From an uncultured Candidatus Saccharibacteria bacterium (GTDB lineage: Bacteria > Patescibacteriota > Minisyncoccia > Phycocordibacterales > SW-6-46-9): 45,370 nucleotides of DNA. The notes under the pieces were generated by a model. It was given only the letters and a program-made list of their open reading frames with translations, searched no databases and was not told the DNA's origin. The DNA is taken from NCBI GenBank assembly GCA_964452185.1, contig CAYVKO010000001.1:2945-48314 (forward strand), read 5' to 3'. Every line of letters begins with the position of its first letter. Positions within the stretch are counted from its first letter, which is position 1. The position numbers and the translations under genes are program-made. Positions 33,292 to 41,151 of the stretch are shown here, piece by piece.

Positions 33292-33474
33292 TGTCCGTCC
33301 GGTTTATCCTGAGCCTGTCGAAGGGCAGGATTTGGCTGCGGTCGATCGAAGTTCGCCTCTGGCCGCACCTTGTTCGTCGTGCTCGCATACTGTGCGTGAC
33401 ATAACTCCGGTGTTCAAATTTATACAGACATGCAGAAATGCATACCTTCTTCTGAACAACTTAACGAGTAAAGA
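33292..33474 (-). mobile_element. tRNA-Lys-anchored short structured element ending in a copy of the tRNA 3' end
   Basis: CAAATCCTGC|CGGACGGACA copy (33334-33325 and 33301-33292) of 33494-33475; 140-nt spacer with hairpins; mobility inferred. Confidence 0.6.
33302..33324 (-). repeat. 23-nt REP-like unit CCTTCGACAGGCTCAGGATAAAC inserted in the tRNA 3' copy
   Basis: Removing these 23 nt restores an exact 20-nt match to the tRNA-Lys 3' end. Confidence 0.85.
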
Positions 33475-33476
33475 TG

Positions 33477-33550
33477 TCCGTCCGGCAGGATTTGAACCTG
33501 CGGCCGTCTGCTTAAGAGGCAGCTGCTCTACCAAGCTGAGCTACGGACGG
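33477..33550 (-). tRNA. tRNA-Lys(CUU)
   Basis: Acceptor stem CCGTCCG/CGGACGG-A; TAGCTCAGCTTGGTAGAGC D-arm; loop CT-CTT-AA; GGTTCAAATCC. Confidence 0.93.
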
Positions 33551-33619
33551 GAATCACTCCCTAAAGCACGCAACAGTTTGCGTGCTCCTCGAATAAGTCT
33601 GCTAACTTATTTAAGGTAG

Positions 33620-33704
33620 TGCCCGGGGTGGGACTCGAACCCACAACCACAGTTCGTGGTACGGATTTTAAGTCCGCTGTGTATACCAATTCCACCACCC
33701 AGGC
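33620..33704 (-). tRNA. tRNA-Leu(UAA)
   Basis: GCCTGGG/CCCGGGC-A; GCGGA-CTTAAAA-TCCGT; long variable arm. Confidence 0.95.
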
Positions 33705-33830
33705 ATATAAAAAACACTCTTAAAAATTACCTTACTCAAGCACCAGCCCGGTTAGTGGTTAGTTCAATTCGTTGTTGTTTGGTCCGGGCGCGCATACCTC
33801 ATTATACTGAAATAAAACCCAGAATAAAGG

Positions 33831-33905
33831 AGGCCTGGATCGGATTTGCACCGACGGATAGAGGTTTTGCAGACCCCTGCGTTAGACTAACTTCGCCACC
33901 AGGCC
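33831..33905 (-). tRNA. tRNA-Cys(GCA)
   Basis: GGCCTGG/CCAGGCC-T (U73); GGGGT-CTGCAAA-ACCTC; T-loop TGCAAAT. Confidence 0.92.
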
Positions 33906-33915
33906 TAAATGTACT

Positions 33916-34245
33916 CTACAACTCAGAAAGAGCATCGTCAATTTGTTGGCGCTTTTTTTCATTGGCATCAATTTCTAGCTTAACTTCAGGCACTTTTCGC
34001 CACGATATCGCATCACCAATTGTTTTACGCAGGTTTGATTGATGACCTTTTAGATTCTTGAAGTCGGATACCAGATTATCATCCGGAAGGATAGTGACGA
34101 ATATCGTTAGTTGAGATAACTTTTGATTAGCCTCGACCCGAGTAACGGTGACAAGTTTTGACGTGGGGCCGTGAGCAGAAAAGTACTTGCCGGCTACTTT
34201 CCGGATGGTTTTTTCAATTTTTTGTCGACGATCTTCATTGGCCAT
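33916..34245 (-). CDS. rbfA: ribosome-binding factor A
   Basis: VTVTRVE and RKVPEVKL.ID motifs; directly downstream of infB. Confidence 0.88.
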   Translation of the reverse strand: MANEDRRQKIEKTIRKVAGKYFSAHGPTSKLVTVTRVEANQKLSQLTIFVTILPDDNLVSDFKNLKGHQSNLRKTIGDAISWRKVPEVKLEIDANEKKRQQIDDALSEL

Positions 34246-34265
34246 ACACGAAAAGCGTTAACAGA

Positions 34266-35765
34266 TTATGACTCAACCATTTCAAATGATTCGATAACAT
34301 CCCCTGGTGCAATAGTGACTCGACTCTCGATATTAGCGCCAAACTCATGGCCGCTTTCTACCTTGTCTGTGGCTGCTCGCTGTTGCTGAAGCTCGACTAT
34401 TTCACCGTCGGCTATTTTAGTTTCATTGCGGATTACTGATACACCGGCACTACTGGTGATTGTTCCGTCAAAGACTTTTCCTCCAATTACTTGCATATCC
34501 TTCTTGCTACTGAAAGTTTTGAGTACTTTTGCTCGTCCGCGCACAACTCGAGTGGTGATGGTGGGGGTACGCTCTTCAACGGCTTCTTTTAACCATTCAA
34601 CTAACTCGTAGATAACAGAACCTGTTTTTACTGCAACATCTCGCCGTTTAGCTGTTTGTTTTGCAGCTTGAGAGACGGAAACATTAAACCCAACGACAAT
34701 CGAAGATACGTCGTTAGAGGCAACTGCTCGGATGTCATCCTCAGTGATATCGCCAACTCCGGTGTGGACAATATCCAGAGCGGCACGATCGCTATGCAGC
34801 TTTTTTAGTTCATGCGTAATAGCATCAACGGTGCCCGAGACATCAGTTTTTACCACTACAGGAATAGTAAAGGCGTCGTACGACTGACGTGCTCCTTGCG
34901 AACCTGATCTCTCTTTTGATTTTTTATACTGCTCAGCAGCTTCACGAGCAGCCTTCTTGTCTTTAAGGGACTCAAACTTGGCTCCAACCTTCGGCTGCTC
35001 GTCAAACCCAACAACCAGTACTGGTGTGCTGGCTTGCGCCTTTTCTATACTTTTGCCTTTAAAGTTCTCAAAAATTCGTACCGGAGCAATACACCCTTCA
35101 GCATGAACATACATACCCGTTTCTAAAGATCCGTCAGTAATTACAAGAGTAGCTTGTGTACCGCGCTGGGCATCAACGGAGGATTCTATGACTGTTCCGC
35201 TTGCATTAGTTTGAGGGTCAGTGGTAAGTTCGTTAAGTTTTGCGGTCAGAGTCAGAAGGTCTAAAAGTTCTTCTATATTTTCTCCGGTCTTAGCTGATAT
35301 TTCAACGTACGATATATCACCTCCAAAACCTTCTACGTAAACTTCGGATTCCGCCAGCTCTTGTATAACGGCGTCTACATCAGCTTCTGGTTTATCTATC
35401 TTATTTATGGCTACAATAAACGGTATTTCTTGCTCTTTAATTTCCTTAATTGTTTCTTTGGTTTGTTCTTGCACTCCGTCATCAGCTGCTACTACAAGGA
35501 CTCCTATGTCAGCAACTGTAGCGCCTCGTTCGCGCATAGCGATAAAGGCTTCATGGCCTGGAGTATCAAGAAAGGTCATCTTGGTACTACCTTCTTCACC
35601 TTCGTGCGTTATTTCGTACGCAGACAGGTGTTGGGTGATTCCACCTGCTTCACTGGCTGCCGTGTTGCTTTTGCGGATATAATCCAGCAGTGTTGATTTG
35701 CCGTGATCGATATGACCCATTACAGCAATAACCGGCGGTCGAGTTGTTGAGTTTTCTTTAGACAT
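34266..35765 (-). CDS. infB: translation initiation factor IF-2 (lacking the N-terminal extension)
   Basis: [34 protein letters not shown] and NKID motifs; ATG 35765 preferred. Confidence 0.97.
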
Positions 35766-35856
35766 AGATTTGACACTGCAAATAGTACCGTAAATAAGTG
35801 TACAATAAAAGCGTTGTCTGGCAGGATCCACTTATTTCCGTTACATTAGTAGGTGC

Positions 35857-37014
35857 ATGAAAGAAAAAGATACAAGCCGCATATATCTTGATTACGCCGC
35901 TTCGACTCCGGTTCGGGATGAGGTGTTGTCGGCAATGGAGGCATACTGGCAGCAAGTTTTTGCTAATCCGCAAGCTACTATTCACACCCCCGGAAGAGAG
36001 GCCAGGAAAGCTGTATCGGAATCGCGAGAACGTATAAGTTCAATCCTTGGTGTACAGGCTTCAGAAATTGTGTTTACTTCTGGGGCTACTGAGGCAAATT
36101 CTTTAGCTATTTTAGGAAGTATGAAGTCGGCCCGAGATCGTATAGAGGAACCTTCAGTTCTTGTTAATGAGATATCTCACGGGTCAGTAACTCAGATCAA
36201 CCAAGATAAGTTTAATGTAGATACAGTACCTGTAGATTCATCAGGACGAATGAATACTGAGGCGTTAGAATCGTTGGTAGATCCAAACACAGCACTGGTA
36301 TCGTGTGAGTATGTAAACAATGAAATTGGAACCATTCAGCCAGTCAGGCAAGTAAGTAAGGCGGCATCCGGAGATGATCTGTACCCGTTAGTTCACACAG
36401 ATGCTAGCCAAGCTCCGGTATTTCTGCCTTTAAACCCTGAACGGCTGGGTGTAGATATGATGACGATCAACGGGCAAAAAATGTATGGCCCAAAAGGTGT
36501 CGGGGTGTTGTGGGTAAAAAGTGGCACTCCGGTACAATCATTGCTTATAAATGACTCTAAAGAACATGTAGGTGATTACCAGGGTGTTCGTCCAGGCACA
36601 CCGCCGGTACCGCTTATAGTGGGTATGGCTCAAGCGCTTGAGTGGGCGCAAAATCATTACGAAAAACACCGAGAGCAAATTACAGCAGTCCGAGATTACG
36701 GCATACGCCAACTTAATGACACCTTTAGTGAAATTCGCATTAACGGAAGTCGTGATCATCGAGTGGCTAACAATATTAGCGTGTCCTTTCTAGGTGTAGA
36801 TCATGATTATTTGGCTACTAAGCTTGACCGGGAGGGAATTGCCTGTGCGACCACTAGTGCTTGTCAGTCAGGGTCTGGTAAGTCTTCGGTGGTGGCTAGA
36901 ATTGAAAATCAAACACAGCAAGCGCTTCGGTTTTCGCTTGGTATACACACAACACAATCCGATATGGACACGCTTGTAAATACTCTCCGCGGTTGCTTGG
37001 ATGGTGCAAGTTAG
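35857..37014 (+). CDS. iscS: cysteine desulfurase (IscS/NifS type)
   Basis: YLDYAASTP, FTSGATEAN, HTDASQ, QKMYGPKG (PLP Lys) and SAC (catalytic Cys). Confidence 0.92.
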   Translation: MKEKDTSRIYLDYAASTPVRDEVLSAMEAYWQQVFANPQATIHTPGREARKAVSESRERISSILGVQASEIVFTSGATEANSLAILGSMKSARDRIEEPSVLVNEISHGSVTQINQDKFNVDTVPVDSSGRMNTEALESLVDPNTALVSCEYVNNEIGTIQPVRQVSKAASGDDLYPLVHTDASQAPVFLPLNPERLGVDMMTINGQKMYGPKGVGVLWVKSGTPVQSLLINDSKEHVGDYQGVRPGTPPVPLIVGMAQALEWAQNHYEKHREQITAVRDYGIRQLNDTFSEIRINGSRDHRVANNISVSFLGVDHDYLATKLDREGIACATTSACQSGSGKSSVVARIENQTQQALRFSLGIHTTQSDMDTLVNTLRGCLDGAS

Positions 37015-37055
37015 ATTCTTTATAAATACTGTTGGTGGTATAATCTAAACCAGAA

Positions 37056-37787
37056 ATGAACAACTTTTCTAGAACACAACTCGTAATGCTGTTTGTGGCT
37101 ATTTTGGCGGTATTAGTCATCGTGGGTGTGCTGGTGATAGGCGAATCATCGGATTCGCAGCCAGCAACAGACCCTACAAGCACAACTACGCCTCAGCAGG
37201 AAGAGTCTGTTTCTGACAGTAATACACCTACGTCGTCAGATGCTACTTCATCAGCAACCGATACTCCAACTACCACGGACACAGCCTCATTACCAACCCA
37301 AAGCGAGGTGTTAACGGCAAGTGTGGATGCGGTAGCTCGAGTTACAGCCCCGGAAATGTCTCCGCAAGCCGGTGTTTTATTGAATATTCGTGGCCAAAAT
37401 AAAATGATTGTTCCGGCTTCAAATCCGTCCAACTCGGCCGAAGGATTGTTTGAAGATGGGGTGGTAGTTAGCCTTAGTCTAGACCCCAACCAATCAGATG
37501 ATGAGTTTTCAGTGTACCGAGTAGGTCAAGCAAGCGGGTCTTTGTCCCCACTAACTGCAAGAGAATATCAGTCAGAAACCGGGGAAGAAATGTACGTAGT
37601 TCCGTTATCGGGTCAACCGCAAATATTTCAAACAACGGTTAGTGCAGTGAGTGAATCAGGGGTTCAGATTGAGTCCAATAATCTTCCGGCTGGCAGCCTA
37701 CTTTTAAACACTCAAGCGGAAGTAGTAGGGCTTTTCAGCACAAACGGTGGTATATTCCCTCCTATATCTTCTCTAATGGCTAATTAG
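37056..37787 (+). CDS. membrane-anchored protein with degenerate trypsin-like fold
   Basis: TM helix, S/T-rich linker; C-terminal PAGSLLLNTQAEVVGL resembles GNSGGPLLNxxGEVVGI. Confidence 0.6.
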   Translation: MNNFSRTQLVMLFVAILAVLVIVGVLVIGESSDSQPATDPTSTTTPQQEESVSDSNTPTSSDATSSATDTPTTTDTASLPTQSEVLTASVDAVARVTAPEMSPQAGVLLNIRGQNKMIVPASNPSNSAEGLFEDGVVVSLSLDPNQSDDEFSVYRVGQASGSLSPLTAREYQSETGEEMYVVPLSGQPQIFQTTVSAVSESGVQIESNNLPAGSLLLNTQAEVVGLFSTNGGIFPPISSLMAN

Positions 37788-37892
37788 AGGGCTAATTTAC
37801 TCCATTGAAAAAGCCATTTAGGTACGCTAAAATATACGTAACTGCATAGCAGCCACAGTACCCTGAAAATATCAGATAAGATACCAACACAT

Positions 37893-40655
37893 ATGGCAAA
37901 TCCAACATCCAACAACAATGACGGGCAACCACCCTTCAATCGATTCACTGCCAAAGCTCGCGAAGCTATTCGCCGAGCACATGAGTTGGCAGTCGAGCGC
38001 GATCAAAATCACGTAAATCCCAACCATCTCCTGGCTGCGTTGATTCAGCAGGATGAAAGTATTGTTTACTCTATCCTTGAAAAGCTCGAAATCGAAATTC
38101 CGCACTTATCTGATGCTGTTATGGGCACTCTTGATGACCCGACAGGCGGCGACGTGGCTTCATCTTCATCTCCGGCATATCAAATTTACTTAACTCCAGA
38201 GTTAGCCAAAACACTTGAAGCATCAACGCGAATAGCTCAGAATCTTTCTGATGAATTTGTTTCAACAGAACATCTGTTCTTGTCAGTGCTCTCAAACGAT
38301 TCTGACGCAAAGGAAATTCTTCAAGAGTTTGGTATCAAGAAGGATGACGTAATGAAAGTGCTCAAAAAGTTGCGAGAAGATGGCGACACACCATCAAAAC
38401 GCTCTCCTCAAAATCGATCACTAAAGAAGTATACAAGAAGCCTTACTGAAATGGCTCGAGAGAATGAACTTGATCCGGTTATTGGTCGTGATCAAGAAGT
38501 GAACCGAATTATTCAAATTCTTTCTCGACGTACAAAGAACAACCCTATCCTTATCGGTGAAGCGGGGGTTGGAAAAACAGCTATAGCTGAAGGCTTGGCT
38601 CAACGAATGGCCAAAGGAGATGTGCCAGAATCTTTGGAGGAAAAAGAGTTAGTGTCCCTAGACCTTGGTTCGCTTATTGCTGGCACAAAATATCGAGGAG
38701 AATTTGAGCAGCGTCTAAAGAAAATTATGAAAGAGATAGAAAACTCTGAAGGGGATGTAATTATGTTTGTTGATGAAATTCATACGATTGTAGGAGCAGG
38801 TGCTGCTGAAGGAGCTATGGATGCATCCAATATGCTTAAACCTGCACTAGCTCGAGGAAAACTCCGTGCTATTGGTGCGACAACTTTAAATGAGTACCAA
38901 AAACATATAGAAAAAGACCCAGCTCTTACTCGGCGCTTCCAGCCGGTTCACGTAGAAGAGCCGTCTATAGAGGATACTGTGGCTATCCTTCGTGGTCTTA
39001 AAGAGAAATACGAACTCTTCCATGGTGTAAAAATTCTTGATGAAGCCGTTGTAGCTGCAGCTGACCTTTCAAGCCGATATATTGCAGATCGATTCTTGCC
39101 AGACAAGGCGGTAGACTTGATTGACGAAGCGTGTTCTGCGCTACGAATGGAGCTTGAAGATAAACCTAAAGAGCTTGAAGAGGCACATCGTAAGATTACT
39201 CGCCTGGAAATCGAAAAAGAGGCTCTTACAAAAGAGGTATCTGATGAAGAAGACCCTGATGAAGAAGTAGTGGAGAGAATTGATGATATAGATAGAAAAA
39301 TTGCTGAACTCAAAGAGGAAACTTCCGAGCTTGAACTTAAGTGGAGAAATGAAAAAGAGACGCTTAATGCTATTAAGGATCTTAAGCAAAAAATTGAAAA
39401 ACTTCGTGTTGAGGCTGAAAATACTGAAGCAGAGGCTGACCTTGGGCGAGCAGCTGAAATCCGCTATGGAGAGATGCCTCGACTAAAAGAGGAGTTGGAA
39501 GAGAAGCAAGAACGTCTTAAGGAGCTCCAATCTAATCGGCGTATTCTAAAAGAGGAGGTAACAGAACGTGATGTTGCTGAAGTGGTATCAGACTGGACAG
39601 GAATTCCGGTTAGTCGGATGCTTGAAGAGGAAGCTGAAAAACTATCCCGAATGGAGGAAACACTACAAGAGCGAGTGGTTGGTCAAGACGAGGCTGTAGA
39701 GAAGATATCTAACGCAGTAAAACGATCTCGGGTTGGTATTGCTGATCCGGAACGACCAATCGGTTCCTTTATGTTCCTTGGTCCAACTGGTGTTGGCAAA
39801 ACTGAGCTAACAAAGACGCTTGCTGAATTCATGTTTGATGATGAAGAGGCGCTCATTCGAGTAGATATGTCTGAGTATATGGAGCGTCACTCTGTCTCCA
39901 AGATGGTTGGTGCTCCGGCCGGATACGTGGGGCACGATGAATCAGGTAACCTCACTGAGAAAGTACGTCACCGTCCATACTCCGTCATTCTCTTTGATGA
40001 AATCGAAAAAGCACACCCTGATGTATTCAACATCCTGCTTCAGGTACTGGACAATGGTCACTTGACCGACTCAAAAGGGAGGAAGGTCAACTTCAAGAAC
40101 ACAATAATTGTACTTACTTCAAATGTGGGTGCTCAACACATCGACAAGATGAAGACGCTCGGATTTAGCCAAGGCGATGAAATGGATGAATATGAACAGG
40201 CTAAGGATAAAGTGCGTGACGAACTAAAAGATGAATTCCGCCCTGAGTTCTTAAACCGCTTAGATGACGTTATCATCTTCAACGTACTATCTGAAGAAGC
40301 GGTTCGTGAAATTGTAAGCATTCAGATGGAAGAAGTTCTTGAGCGTCTAGAAAAGAAGGATCTTACGCTCGAAATTGCTGATCCAGTTTACGACTATCTG
40401 GCTGAGGAAGGATATAATCCTCAGTACGGAGCTCGACCACTCAACCGAGTTATCCAAAACCAGATACTCACACCTGTAGCTAACTTGATGGTAGAACGAG
40501 GTGTGTTTGAGGGTGGTGAGGTACGAGTAGAAATGGAGGATGGAGAACTAAACTTTGAGGTGACCAAAAAAGGAGAAGCTCCACCTCTCGAAGAAGCTAT
40601 TCCTGAGGCTTCAGACCTCAAAGAGCCAGCCGAACCAGCAGGAGCTACCACTTAA
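37893..40655 (+). CDS. clpB: ATP-dependent chaperone ClpB
   Basis: Clp N repeats; GEAGVGKT and GPTGVGKT Walker A motifs; long coiled-coil M domain (AAEIRYG); YGARPL. Confidence 0.95.
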
Positions 40656-40696
40656 GCTCATCAAATAAAAAGACAATTCAAACTAATTAAAGCTTT

Positions 40697-40723
40697 AAGC
40701 AGCGGTTAATTTCCGTTGCTTTT
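40697..40723 (+). terminator. probable rho-independent terminator
   Basis: AAGCAGCGG-7 nt-CCGTTGCTT-TT. Confidence 0.7.
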
Positions 40724-40766
40724 ATATTGCGAAACACGGTCAATCTTGCTATTATTTTACGTGGTT

Positions 40767-40850
40767 GCGTCGGTACCGAAGTGGTCAAACGGGGCAGACT
40801 GTAAATCTGCTGGCTTTATGCCTTCGTAGGTTCAAGTCCTACCCGGCGCA
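40767..40850 (+). tRNA. tRNA-Tyr(GUA)
   Basis: GCGTCGG/CCGGCGC-A; GCAGA-CTGTAAA-TCTGC; long variable arm; TGCTATTAT promoter upstream. Confidence 0.95.
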
Positions 40851-40852
40851 CA

Positions 40853-41034
40853 GCCTACAGACCTTATTAAGATTAAGCGAAGCTGGAGAACATGCATTTA
40901 TGCATGTTCATGTGGACTTGAAAGCCGCAGACATATCTGAGTTTCAGCTATGCTGAAGGCGAAGATGTCGAGGTGGGGTCGAGAAAAATTCTCGTCAGAG
41001 AATTTATTCGTGACCAAGTCCTACCCGGCGCACA
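40853..41034 (+). mobile_element. tRNA-Tyr-anchored short structured element ending in a copy of the tRNA 3' end
   Basis: CAAGTCCTACCCGGCGCACA at 40833-40852 is repeated exactly at 41015-41034; 162-nt spacer with three hairpins; mobility inferred. Confidence 0.65.
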
Positions 41035-41101
41035 CTTCAACAGATTCAGTGCGAACACCTCGACAAACTCAGTGTAAAAACTTCGGCTAGTTCGGTGTGG
41101 G
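41033..41101 (+). repeat. three degenerate tandem REP-like units, 23-bp period
   Basis: CACTTCAACAGATTCAGTG (41033), CACCTCGACAAACTCAGTG (41056), AACTTCGGCTAGTTCGGTG (41079). Confidence 0.75.
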
Positions 41102-41151
41102 TAGTGTTAACTCCTGAAGAATTCGGCATTTTTGCTATACTTCAACTGGTT

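Follow-up and report, generated by a model that had tools for sequence, protein, structure and literature searches.

A family of small folded elements closed by copies of tRNA gene ends in a Candidatus Saccharibacteria genome and its relatives

Here we describe a family of small folded elements that lack open reading frames (ORFs), lie directly behind transfer RNA (tRNA) genes and end in a second copy of the 3' end of the gene they follow. Two members, behind tRNA-Lys and tRNA-Tyr, lie in the window, by which we mean the whole 45,370-nucleotide (nt) stretch of contig CAYVKO010000001.1 (assembly GCA_964452185.1) of an uncultured Candidatus Saccharibacteria bacterium. The same core recurs behind many other tRNAs of this genome and in most of the genomes compared from its order. 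We give about an even chance to the reading that these are selfish, ORF-less, structured insertion elements whose host genes are kept by duplication of the gene end. Collectively, the searches reported below indicate what is apparently a large family of small, protein-free folded elements, undescribed so far.

Results

One architecture behind many tRNA genes

The genome that holds the window (G000; 610 kb in 25 contigs, 86% complete) has 37 tRNA genes. In a whole-genome tRNA scan, 15 of the 37 had at least 11 nt of their last 22 nt exactly repeated 103–352 nt downstream; by arithmetic, the chance expectation of an 11-mer copy in such a stretch is ~0.002 per tRNA. A search for such copies had been suggested in a preliminary description of the window, made from the letters alone. 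Six of the spacers (Tyr, Gln, Ala-GGC, Ser-CGA, Arg-GCG and Ser-GCT) were aligned over ~150 nt. RNAalifold predicted 47 pairs in this alignment, 24 of them with compensatory changes, and the alignment served as the source of a covariance model, hereafter R1. At expectation values (E) up to 1, R1 matched 13 places in G000, among them both window elements, the spacers behind tRNA-Arg(TCT), tRNA-Arg(CCT) and tRNA-Leu(GAG), and one tRNA-Asn-like gene. These 13 loci agree with the earlier proposal that one ORF-less architecture is shared by many different tRNAs, rather than the window holding a pair of integrase scars.

The tRNA-Asn(GTT)-like gene (G000:C2:59886-60052, outside the window) has the R1 core inside its T-loop; its acceptor 5' strand, D arm and anticodon arm are kept, with one acceptor mismatch, and an intact tRNA-Asn lies 1.4 kb away. 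ARAGORN also reported two oddities among the tRNA genes: one in the relative G039 (L100:702-775), with anticodon TTA ('Stop') and the acceptor end of tRNA-Lys, and one in G000 (C3:45213-45286) with a four-letter anticodon (gaaa).

The elements share a fold that covaries with the tRNA

The elements are 130–190 nt long and ORF-less. Read 5' to 3' on the tRNA strand, they comprise copy A, which is the intact gene end, a linker that often holds a shared motif, an arm antisense to tRNA positions C74–66, and a hairpin (H1). Behind H1, which usually splits the arm, the antisense match continues from position 65 to T54; a purine-rich joiner then leads to the three-way-junction core, and copy B comes last. 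The core is built from P2/P3/H2 and from H3, which has a GUCA-type loop, and it ends in GUGAC. On the sense strand of the gene the arm pairs with copy B, which closes the core.

Supporting this fold, 95.0% of the pair cells were paired across 111 distinct matches, compared with 36–47% when the 3' partners were slid. All 47 modelled pairs showed changes on both sides in the 111 matches, as did 45 of 47 in a 50-sequence set, figures that lean high because the alignments had been fitted to the model and come from related genomes. Compensatory changes occurred at all nine H1 pairs, and the pairs of the closing helix P1 covary with the tRNA. Covariation, which the preliminary description had proposed to test, was found at every modelled pair, and the strand complementary to the T-loop, T-stem and acceptor 3' strand of the element's own tRNA is present and changes along with it. 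G-U cells numbered 315 against 67 A-C cells, and one pair was G-U in 79 of the 111 sequences. The excess of G-U over A-C therefore indicates that the tRNA-sense strand folds, most simply as RNA. We infer that tRNA and element are transcribed together and that the fold acts as RNA. By eye, the GNA/GA internal loop was a poor fit to a kink-turn.

The junction is fixed at T-loop position C56

A same-strand tRNA or transfer-messenger RNA (tmRNA) gene lay no more than 700 nt upstream of 96 of the 111 distinct matches, and 58 of these elements closed with an exact copy 9 nt or more in length. The copy started at C56 in 41 of the 58, so the fixed duplication start at this T-loop position, first noted at the two window loci, extends to most scorable copies. 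Its end fell between N73 and N73+4 in 34 of the 58, and nine copies extended further into the trailer. Copy B was often truncated or interrupted. Most tRNA genes of G000 do not encode CCA but have C-A directly behind the discriminator, and the repeat usually takes in both letters.

The anti-acceptor arm was also borne out. The best complementarity of the linker to positions 66–74 averaged 6.92 of 9, compared with 6.05 ± 0.09 (maximum 6.33 of 200) in permutations that swapped the acceptors among elements, and reached at least 7 of 9 in 44 of 63 elements. The arm pairs in addition with the discriminator N73, with C74 and with T-loop positions 56–60, so that the fold reproduces the gene end as a duplex and is not a tRNA-like acceptor with a free tail. 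A tRNA-like or tmRNA-like minihelix that could be aminoacylated was excluded on the same ground.

The two loci in the window

Window positions equal the genome coordinate on contig C1 minus 2944. The features at the two loci are as follows.

33476–33550, minus strand: tRNA-Lys(CTT), intact; C56 to A75 is copy A (ARAGORN; Rfam tRNA 67.5 bits)
33292–33475, minus strand: Lys element, a degenerate member, with linker, H1, anti-T strand, core and a displaced, split copy B
33443–33430, 33419–33413 and 33411–33335, minus strand: H1, anti-T strand and core of the Lys element, respectively (from the sequence)
33301–33323, minus strand: 23-nt insertion with the CTTCGACAGGCTCAGG... motif, interrupting the Lys copy B at the T-stem/acceptor junction
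40767–40851, plus strand: tRNA-Tyr(GTA), intact; C56–A75 is copy A (ARAGORN; Rfam tRNA 58.5 bits)
40853–40887, plus strand: left linker of the Tyr element, with a weak anti-acceptor segment at ~40877–40886 (5 of 9 possible pairs)
40888–40909, plus strand: Tyr hairpin H1, a 9-bp stem with TTTA loop (RNAalifold, pair counts)
40914–40922, plus strand: Tyr anti-T strand GGACTTGAA, complementary to tRNA positions 54–62; 5' strand of the closing helix P1
40923–41014, plus strand: conserved core of the Tyr element, a three-way junction of arm P2/P3/H2 and arm H3; GTGAC abuts the copy (alignments, R1)
41015–41034, plus strand: Tyr copy B, an exact 20-nt repeat of tRNA-Tyr C56–A75; 3' strand of P1
32973–33061, minus strand: possible remnant of a further core behind tRNA-Leu(TAG) (R1 at G000:C1:35917-36005; E 0.56, not significant)

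At tRNA-Tyr, R1 matched window positions 40884–41034 with E 7e-39. The spacer (40853–41014) is 162 nt long and, just as first described, is closed by an exact 20-nt copy that starts at C56 and ends 2 nt past the discriminator. At tRNA-Lys, R1 matched G000:C1:36260-36395, which is window 33316–33451, with E 1.1e-6. Here copy B begins at C56, 141 nt behind the tRNA, and is split into 11 nt (33334–33324), 23 unrelated nt (33323–33301) and 9 nt (33300–33292). The start that had been claimed for this copy therefore stands, whereas the contiguous 20-mer does not. The common internal order reported for the two loci, with H1, an anti-T strand ending in TTGAA, CCGSAG, a hairpin, RAGGTG, a second hairpin and the copy, was recovered, and one covariance model fits both spacers. 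The small ORFs across both spacers had no match in a Pfam search, in keeping with the reported lack of an integrase or credible ORF. Between the two loci lie genes for IF-2, a class-V aminotransferase, an unassigned 243-residue ORF product and ClpB; because these are housekeeping genes, the loci are independent and not the two ends of one island.

The CTTCGACAGGCTCAGG... motif of the 23-nt insertion recurs directly behind tRNA ends and within copies B at the T-stem/acceptor junction. It stands directly behind tRNA-Ser(CGA) and behind the copy of this tRNA on contig C6, and also occurs on C23 (sites: window 33301–33323, minus strand; G000 C6:11019-11034, C6:11212-11227 and C23:3844-3859; G001 L023 and L049, G001 being a genome of the same genus as G000). 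At up to three mismatches it had eight matches in G000, compared with 0–4 in shuffled sequences.

Among contigs from four soil-metagenome runs, one, from run X4, joined position 40852 to 41103, skipping 250 nt that include the Tyr element. Position 41103 is 49 nt before tRNA-Trp, and the contig, seen at depth 5 under an 80% likeness setting, may come from another organism. We did not count this joint as an empty site because it is imprecise and of low depth.

Occurrence in relatives and in databases

In the order, R1 matched 52 of 61 genomes, counting G000; the matches exceeded 500 in all and reached 44 in one genome. It also matched 51 of 121 genomes in a class sample, and 8 of 141 in a phylum sample (G000 included). 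It found no match in 9 of the 61 order genomes, most of them at least 92% complete, or in 70 of the 121 class-sample genomes. The genome richest in elements, G039 (100% complete, 0.8 Mb), has 44 R1 matches and 43 tRNAs. A same-strand R1 match starts no more than 250 nt downstream of 27 of these 43 tRNAs, in two cases with another tRNA in between, and for 33 of the 44 matches a tRNA or tmRNA stands within 700 nt on the upstream side. Behind tRNA-Lys, a special variant is found again in five families.

Consistent with the earlier impression that this is not a described class, only tRNAs passed the gathering score in Rfam 15, the spacers being uncovered at E up to 10; eight further element loci gave no element match at E up to 1. 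Since this comparison takes in group I and II introns, self-cleaving ribozymes, HEARO, tmRNA and YrlA, the idea of a known self-cleaving ribozyme or group I intron was dropped. The Tyr spacer had no blastn match in phage and plasmid collections, and the core pattern run over viral contigs found nothing. A full-text literature search returned no account, for these bacteria, of folded spacers closed by repeats of tRNA ends, though supplements may hold one.

Elements behave like insertions

Occupied tRNAs differ within a genus. G001 carries elements at tRNA-Trp, tRNA-Thr, tRNA-Val, tRNA-Leu(TAA), tRNA-Met and tmRNA, and G000 has none at these genes. At tRNA-Asp of G001, an R1 element with its copy B stands between the tRNA and a module formed by the terminator and a second kind of element (type B, below), whereas in G000 this module abuts the tRNA. 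Filled and empty alleles, which had been suggested as something to look for in relatives, are seen at tRNA-Trp (filled in G001, empty in G000) and at tRNA-Asp (element in G001 only). Tandem elements, each closed by the same copy, occur behind tmRNA in G006 and behind tRNA-Leu, tRNA-Lys and tRNA-Asn in G039, and R1 elements were also found nested in copies of type-B elements.

Two R1 cores of G039 lie in the 3' ends of protein genes, namely a topoisomerase zinc-ribbon gene (topA) and rplL (L095:3620-3758 and L105:401-694). In rplL the core is 17 nt from the gene end, the repeat is 17 nt long and the whole unit is in tandem; in topA the core is ~70 nt from the gene end and the repeat is at least 34 nt. 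In both, the gene end is repeated behind GUGAC, and an arm of 6–9 nt can base-pair with the start of the repeat and extends 1–2 nt further into the intact upstream copy. These orphan copies indicate a more general rule, insertion close to where a conserved gene ends and duplication of that end, with tRNAs as the usual but not the sole address. The alternative of a tRNA-trailer RNA module, also raised in the preliminary description, is weakened, since rplL and topA hold this core too and have their own ends duplicated.

Arms evolve faster than cores. At three tRNA-Leu loci of G039 the cores are 97–99% identical, and the arms at Leu-TAG and Leu-TAA, with four differences between them, each fit the local tRNA. 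At Leu-GAG the arm is still of the Leu-TAG type and copy B follows Leu-GAG. At tRNA-Arg(TCG) of the same genome, the arm and the tRNA end with its trailer together make up a perfect palindrome of 23 nt around a 2-nt centre, and copy B has decayed. Other variants have a palindrome centred on the terminator hairpin of the tRNA, which stands in for H1. Template switching at hairpins and templated correction of near-palindromes are known mutational processes, and the arm and palindrome patterns fit both.

Companion elements

A second ORF-less core, type B, occurs at Glu-TTC, Ser-TGA, Asp and Pro tRNAs with the outer layout of R1, that is, an anti-T strand, a core and a copy of the tRNA end. Its right junction reads ...GTGAAATTC followed by the tRNA from about position 61, and this junction is shared with a GIY-YIG insertion behind tRNA-Met. 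An alignment of seven type-B elements was too heterogeneous for a model. Type-B and GIY-YIG loci are as follows.

C6:10565-10697, C7:15278-15408, C10:13030-13170 and C18:732-860 of G000: type B (loci L005, L008, L014 and L016; also L091, L067 and L055)
C10:7427-7675 of G000 (L013:188-436): GIY-YIG locus of the own genome
L069, L073, L076, L079, L085, L091, L072, L088, L068 and L092: GIY-YIG loci of relatives

In G000 the initiator tRNA-Met is followed by an 83-residue GIY-YIG gene and then by a copy of the tRNA 3' end. Of the 61 order genomes, 48 have small GIY-YIG genes (~80 residues), with as many as 10 in one genome. Taking the best GIY-YIG locus of each of 30 genomes, six lie no more than 700 nt behind a same-strand tRNA or tmRNA and about 11 more directly adjoin the 5' end of such a gene. 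The GIY-YIG genes are tRNA-associated insertions of a kind of their own, many of them placed directly before an intact tRNA. A second, broken copy of the tRNA 5' part, sometimes with the leader, stands upstream of the ORF and is interrupted by a GC-rich palindrome in the D or anticodon loop. A supposed core fragment behind a GIY-YIG gene on contig C14 proved to be the start of a Rossmann-type gene.

Enzymes and transcription

The reverse-transcriptase domain RVT_1 was found in 25 of 61 genomes of the order and was not found in the R1-rich genomes G039, G004, G055 and G001. As a single case, an R1 match of G024 (C2:77741-77884) lies ~150 nt from a reverse-transcriptase gene (78035-78640). Near the window loci, promoter-like sites occur only ahead of the tRNA clusters (in front of tRNA-Cys and of tRNA-Tyr), and no terminator-like site lies between tRNA, element and next tRNA. 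As a hint of co-transcription this is weak, because counts of promoter- and terminator-like sites do not exceed those in shuffled sequences. A look-up of sequencing runs that contain the sequence returned none of RNA.

Discussion

A possible selfish element that spares its host gene

How could such an element persist in essential genes? The elements sit nearly always at T-loop position 55/56 of tRNA or tmRNA genes, and rarely in the last 17–70 nt of protein genes. The host gene survives through its doubled 3' end, copy A completing the gene and copy B lying downstream of the element. Lacking a gene of its own, the element could spread by recombination, with the conserved tRNA and copy B as portable homology, or by replication template switching at the universal T-loop; alternatively, some enzyme may act in trans. 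Arm and copy would be kept matched by template-switch correction of near-palindromes. The earlier suggestion of a non-autonomous element that addresses many tRNAs is largely borne out.

Several observations weigh against this selfish reading. The large alignments were fitted to the R1 structure and draw on related genomes, which are not independent samples. A fold conserved across the class, with conserved G-U pairs, is also expected of an RNA useful to the host, and in one genome, G039, most tRNAs (27 of 43) carry an element. The recurrence of the tRNA-Lys variant in five families could mean long vertical retention under selection. No pair of elements at different tRNAs of G000 is more than 88% identical in the core, so that no recent jump is seen in this genome, and the contigs of the four soil-metagenome runs held no empty/filled pair at read level. 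As for enzymes, searches of G000 (86% complete) found no RVT_1, no TnpB zinc-ribbon (PF07282) and no Y1 transposase (PF01797), IscB not being among the families searched. The one tyrosine recombinase found there, on a contig other than that of the window, is Xer-like, with its best matches to the XerC/XerD models falling below their cut-offs.

A bolder version of this idea, which we hold tentatively and consider unlikely, makes the arm a programmable guide. The single-stranded element, as RNA or DNA, would pair with a gene's 3' end over a span of about −2 to about +20 around the junction to be formed, and so direct its own insertion. Host or trans-acting enzymes would insert it, and each new target would serve as the template for a fresh arm. 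The original address would have been the universal T-loop, hence tRNA, tmRNA and occasional conserved genes would be struck. If true, such an element would be mobile and guided by nucleic acid while carrying no dedicated enzyme gene.

Alternative explanations

The elements might instead be cis-acting RNAs useful to the host and part of the tRNA precursor, serving 3'-end processing or release, termination or precursor protection, or letting the arm switch between the tRNA 3' half and a decoy, copy B. Their constant position on the tRNA strand directly downstream of the gene would suit this, as would the lack of promoter- or terminator-like sites between tRNA and element in the window, the G-U-bearing fold conserved across order and class, the occupation of 27 of 43 tRNAs in the complete G039, and the tRNA-Lys variant kept in five families. 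A host function is harder to reconcile with the 9 of 61 order genomes and 70 of 121 class-sample genomes in which R1 has no match, or with two genomes of one genus that carry elements at different tRNAs. Copies B are truncated or interrupted, and tandem arrays, orphan copies and copies at protein-gene ends follow the same repeat logic. We therefore regard a host RNA as improbable, though not remotely so.

Less probable again is the idea, put forward in the preliminary description, of integration by an enzyme encoded in trans, here a nuclease or recombinase with the small GIY-YIG proteins or the Xer-like recombinase as candidates, on a single-stranded element that pairs through its arm. The arm is complementary to the intact target from 1–2 nt upstream of the junction to ~20 nt downstream, both at tRNAs (GAA opposite T54-T55-C56) and at the two protein-gene targets, and arm and copy B together rebuild a duplex of the target. 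GIY-YIG genes of 83 residues are present in 48 of 61 genomes and often adjoin tRNAs, and the one in G000 sits between tRNA-Met and a copy of its 3' end. However, eight R1-positive genomes (G010, G030, G034, G038, G040, G046, G053 and G059) gave no GIY-YIG match with this query, and the GIY-YIG elements mostly duplicate the 5' part of the tRNA and use other junctions. Moreover, chance cannot supply in advance a 20-nt arm that is specific for one tRNA, so that guided integration needs an added re-templating step.

A T-loop intron, self-spliced or protein-spliced, would make the gene out of tRNA positions 1–55, the intron and copy B. The arm does resemble an internal guide sequence pairing with both sides of 55/56, and the tRNA-Asn-like gene described above has a full 5' part with the core in its T-loop. 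Yet a complete tRNA stands ahead of every element, and splicing cannot be needed where copy B is so often truncated or interrupted. Joining of the flanks at TTCAAAT-type loops could not rebuild the T-loop, Rfam introns had no match, and the protein-gene targets are rescued by duplication rather than splicing. This makes an intron highly improbable.

Least probable of all, and disfavoured, are attL/attR scars of deleted integrase islands: repeats of a tRNA 3' segment from the T-loop are indeed what T-loop-type integrase sites produce, but the interiors are homologous and folded at hundreds of loci rather than unrelated, the repeats stand 103–352 nt apart at 15 tRNAs of one genome, housekeeping genes fill the space between the window loci, the sole tyrosine recombinase is Xer-like, and no integrase or remnant lies beside the repeats.

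Likeness to known systems

None of the known families considered is a full fit for the elements. Integrative elements and prophages enter the 3' ends of tRNA or icd-type genes and carry a replacement gene end. R1 elements share with tRNA-inserting prophages the direct repeat of the 3' segment from the T-loop, the intact gene and the use of tmRNA as a further target; they differ in their size of 130–190 nt, the lack of an integrase or any ORF, the folded core, the antisense arm and the occupation of dozens of different tRNAs in one genome.

Guide RNAs are made at the ends of some mobile elements, namely the omega RNA or reRNA of TnpB-IscB and the bridge or seek RNA of IS110/IS1111. Like these, R1 has a scaffold of ~100–150 nt followed by ~20 nt identical to the flank, and a second segment complementary to the target. 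In contrast to them, it has no adjacent nuclease or recombinase gene, its 'guide' is paired in cis with the arm, and it has no Rfam match. A TnpB guide RNA is further disfavoured by the lack of a TnpB zinc-ribbon match in G000. As to an IS110 bridge RNA, no ORF stands beside the elements, DEDD recombinases not having been searched genome-wide.

Integron attC and CTX-phage attP(+) are folded single-strand recombination sites. R1 resembles them in that a duplex of one strand rebuilds the partner site, structure is conserved above sequence and the element is non-autonomous. It departs from them in that there is no integron integrase, only the Xer-like recombinase, and in its core, a three-way junction whose conserved G-U pairs speak for RNA and not for DNA.

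Miniature inverted-repeat transposable elements (MITEs) and the REP/PATE sequences of the IS200/IS605 family are small, ORF-less, hairpin-rich and multicopy, all of which also holds for R1. The inverted 'ends' of R1, however, are copied from the target, differ at every locus and change with the local gene end, unlike those of MITEs. Its repeat, of 17–70 nt and reaching the end of the host gene, sets it apart from both groups, as does the lack of a Y1 transposase in G000. A SINE-like or retron-like retroelement is at odds with the lack of RVT_1 in G000 and in the R1-rich G039, G004, G055 and G001.

Free-standing GIY-YIG homing endonuclease genes occur in tRNA clusters, as in phage T4 segB (PMC2330249). 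R1 would share with segB-type genes the nature of selfish DNA among tRNA genes, and the GIY-YIG insertions seen here also duplicate part of the invaded tRNA. R1 differs from those insertions in having no ORF, and in its junction at C56 with a repeat of the 3' end, compared with a repeat of mostly the 5' part.

Significance

If our reading is correct, a class of bacteria with very small genomes carries, on most of its tRNA genes, up to ~40 copies per genome of a folded element that no catalogue lists, and an abundant family of RNA or structured DNA would be added. For genome annotation, the elements are a visible share of the non-coding DNA, and their tRNA-end repeats can be mistaken for island borders. 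R1 would also reveal a novel manner in which selfish DNA can reside in essential genes and stay harmless, by duplicating the gene end and pairing with it, and it offers a concrete system for asking whether base-pairing alone can address insertions.

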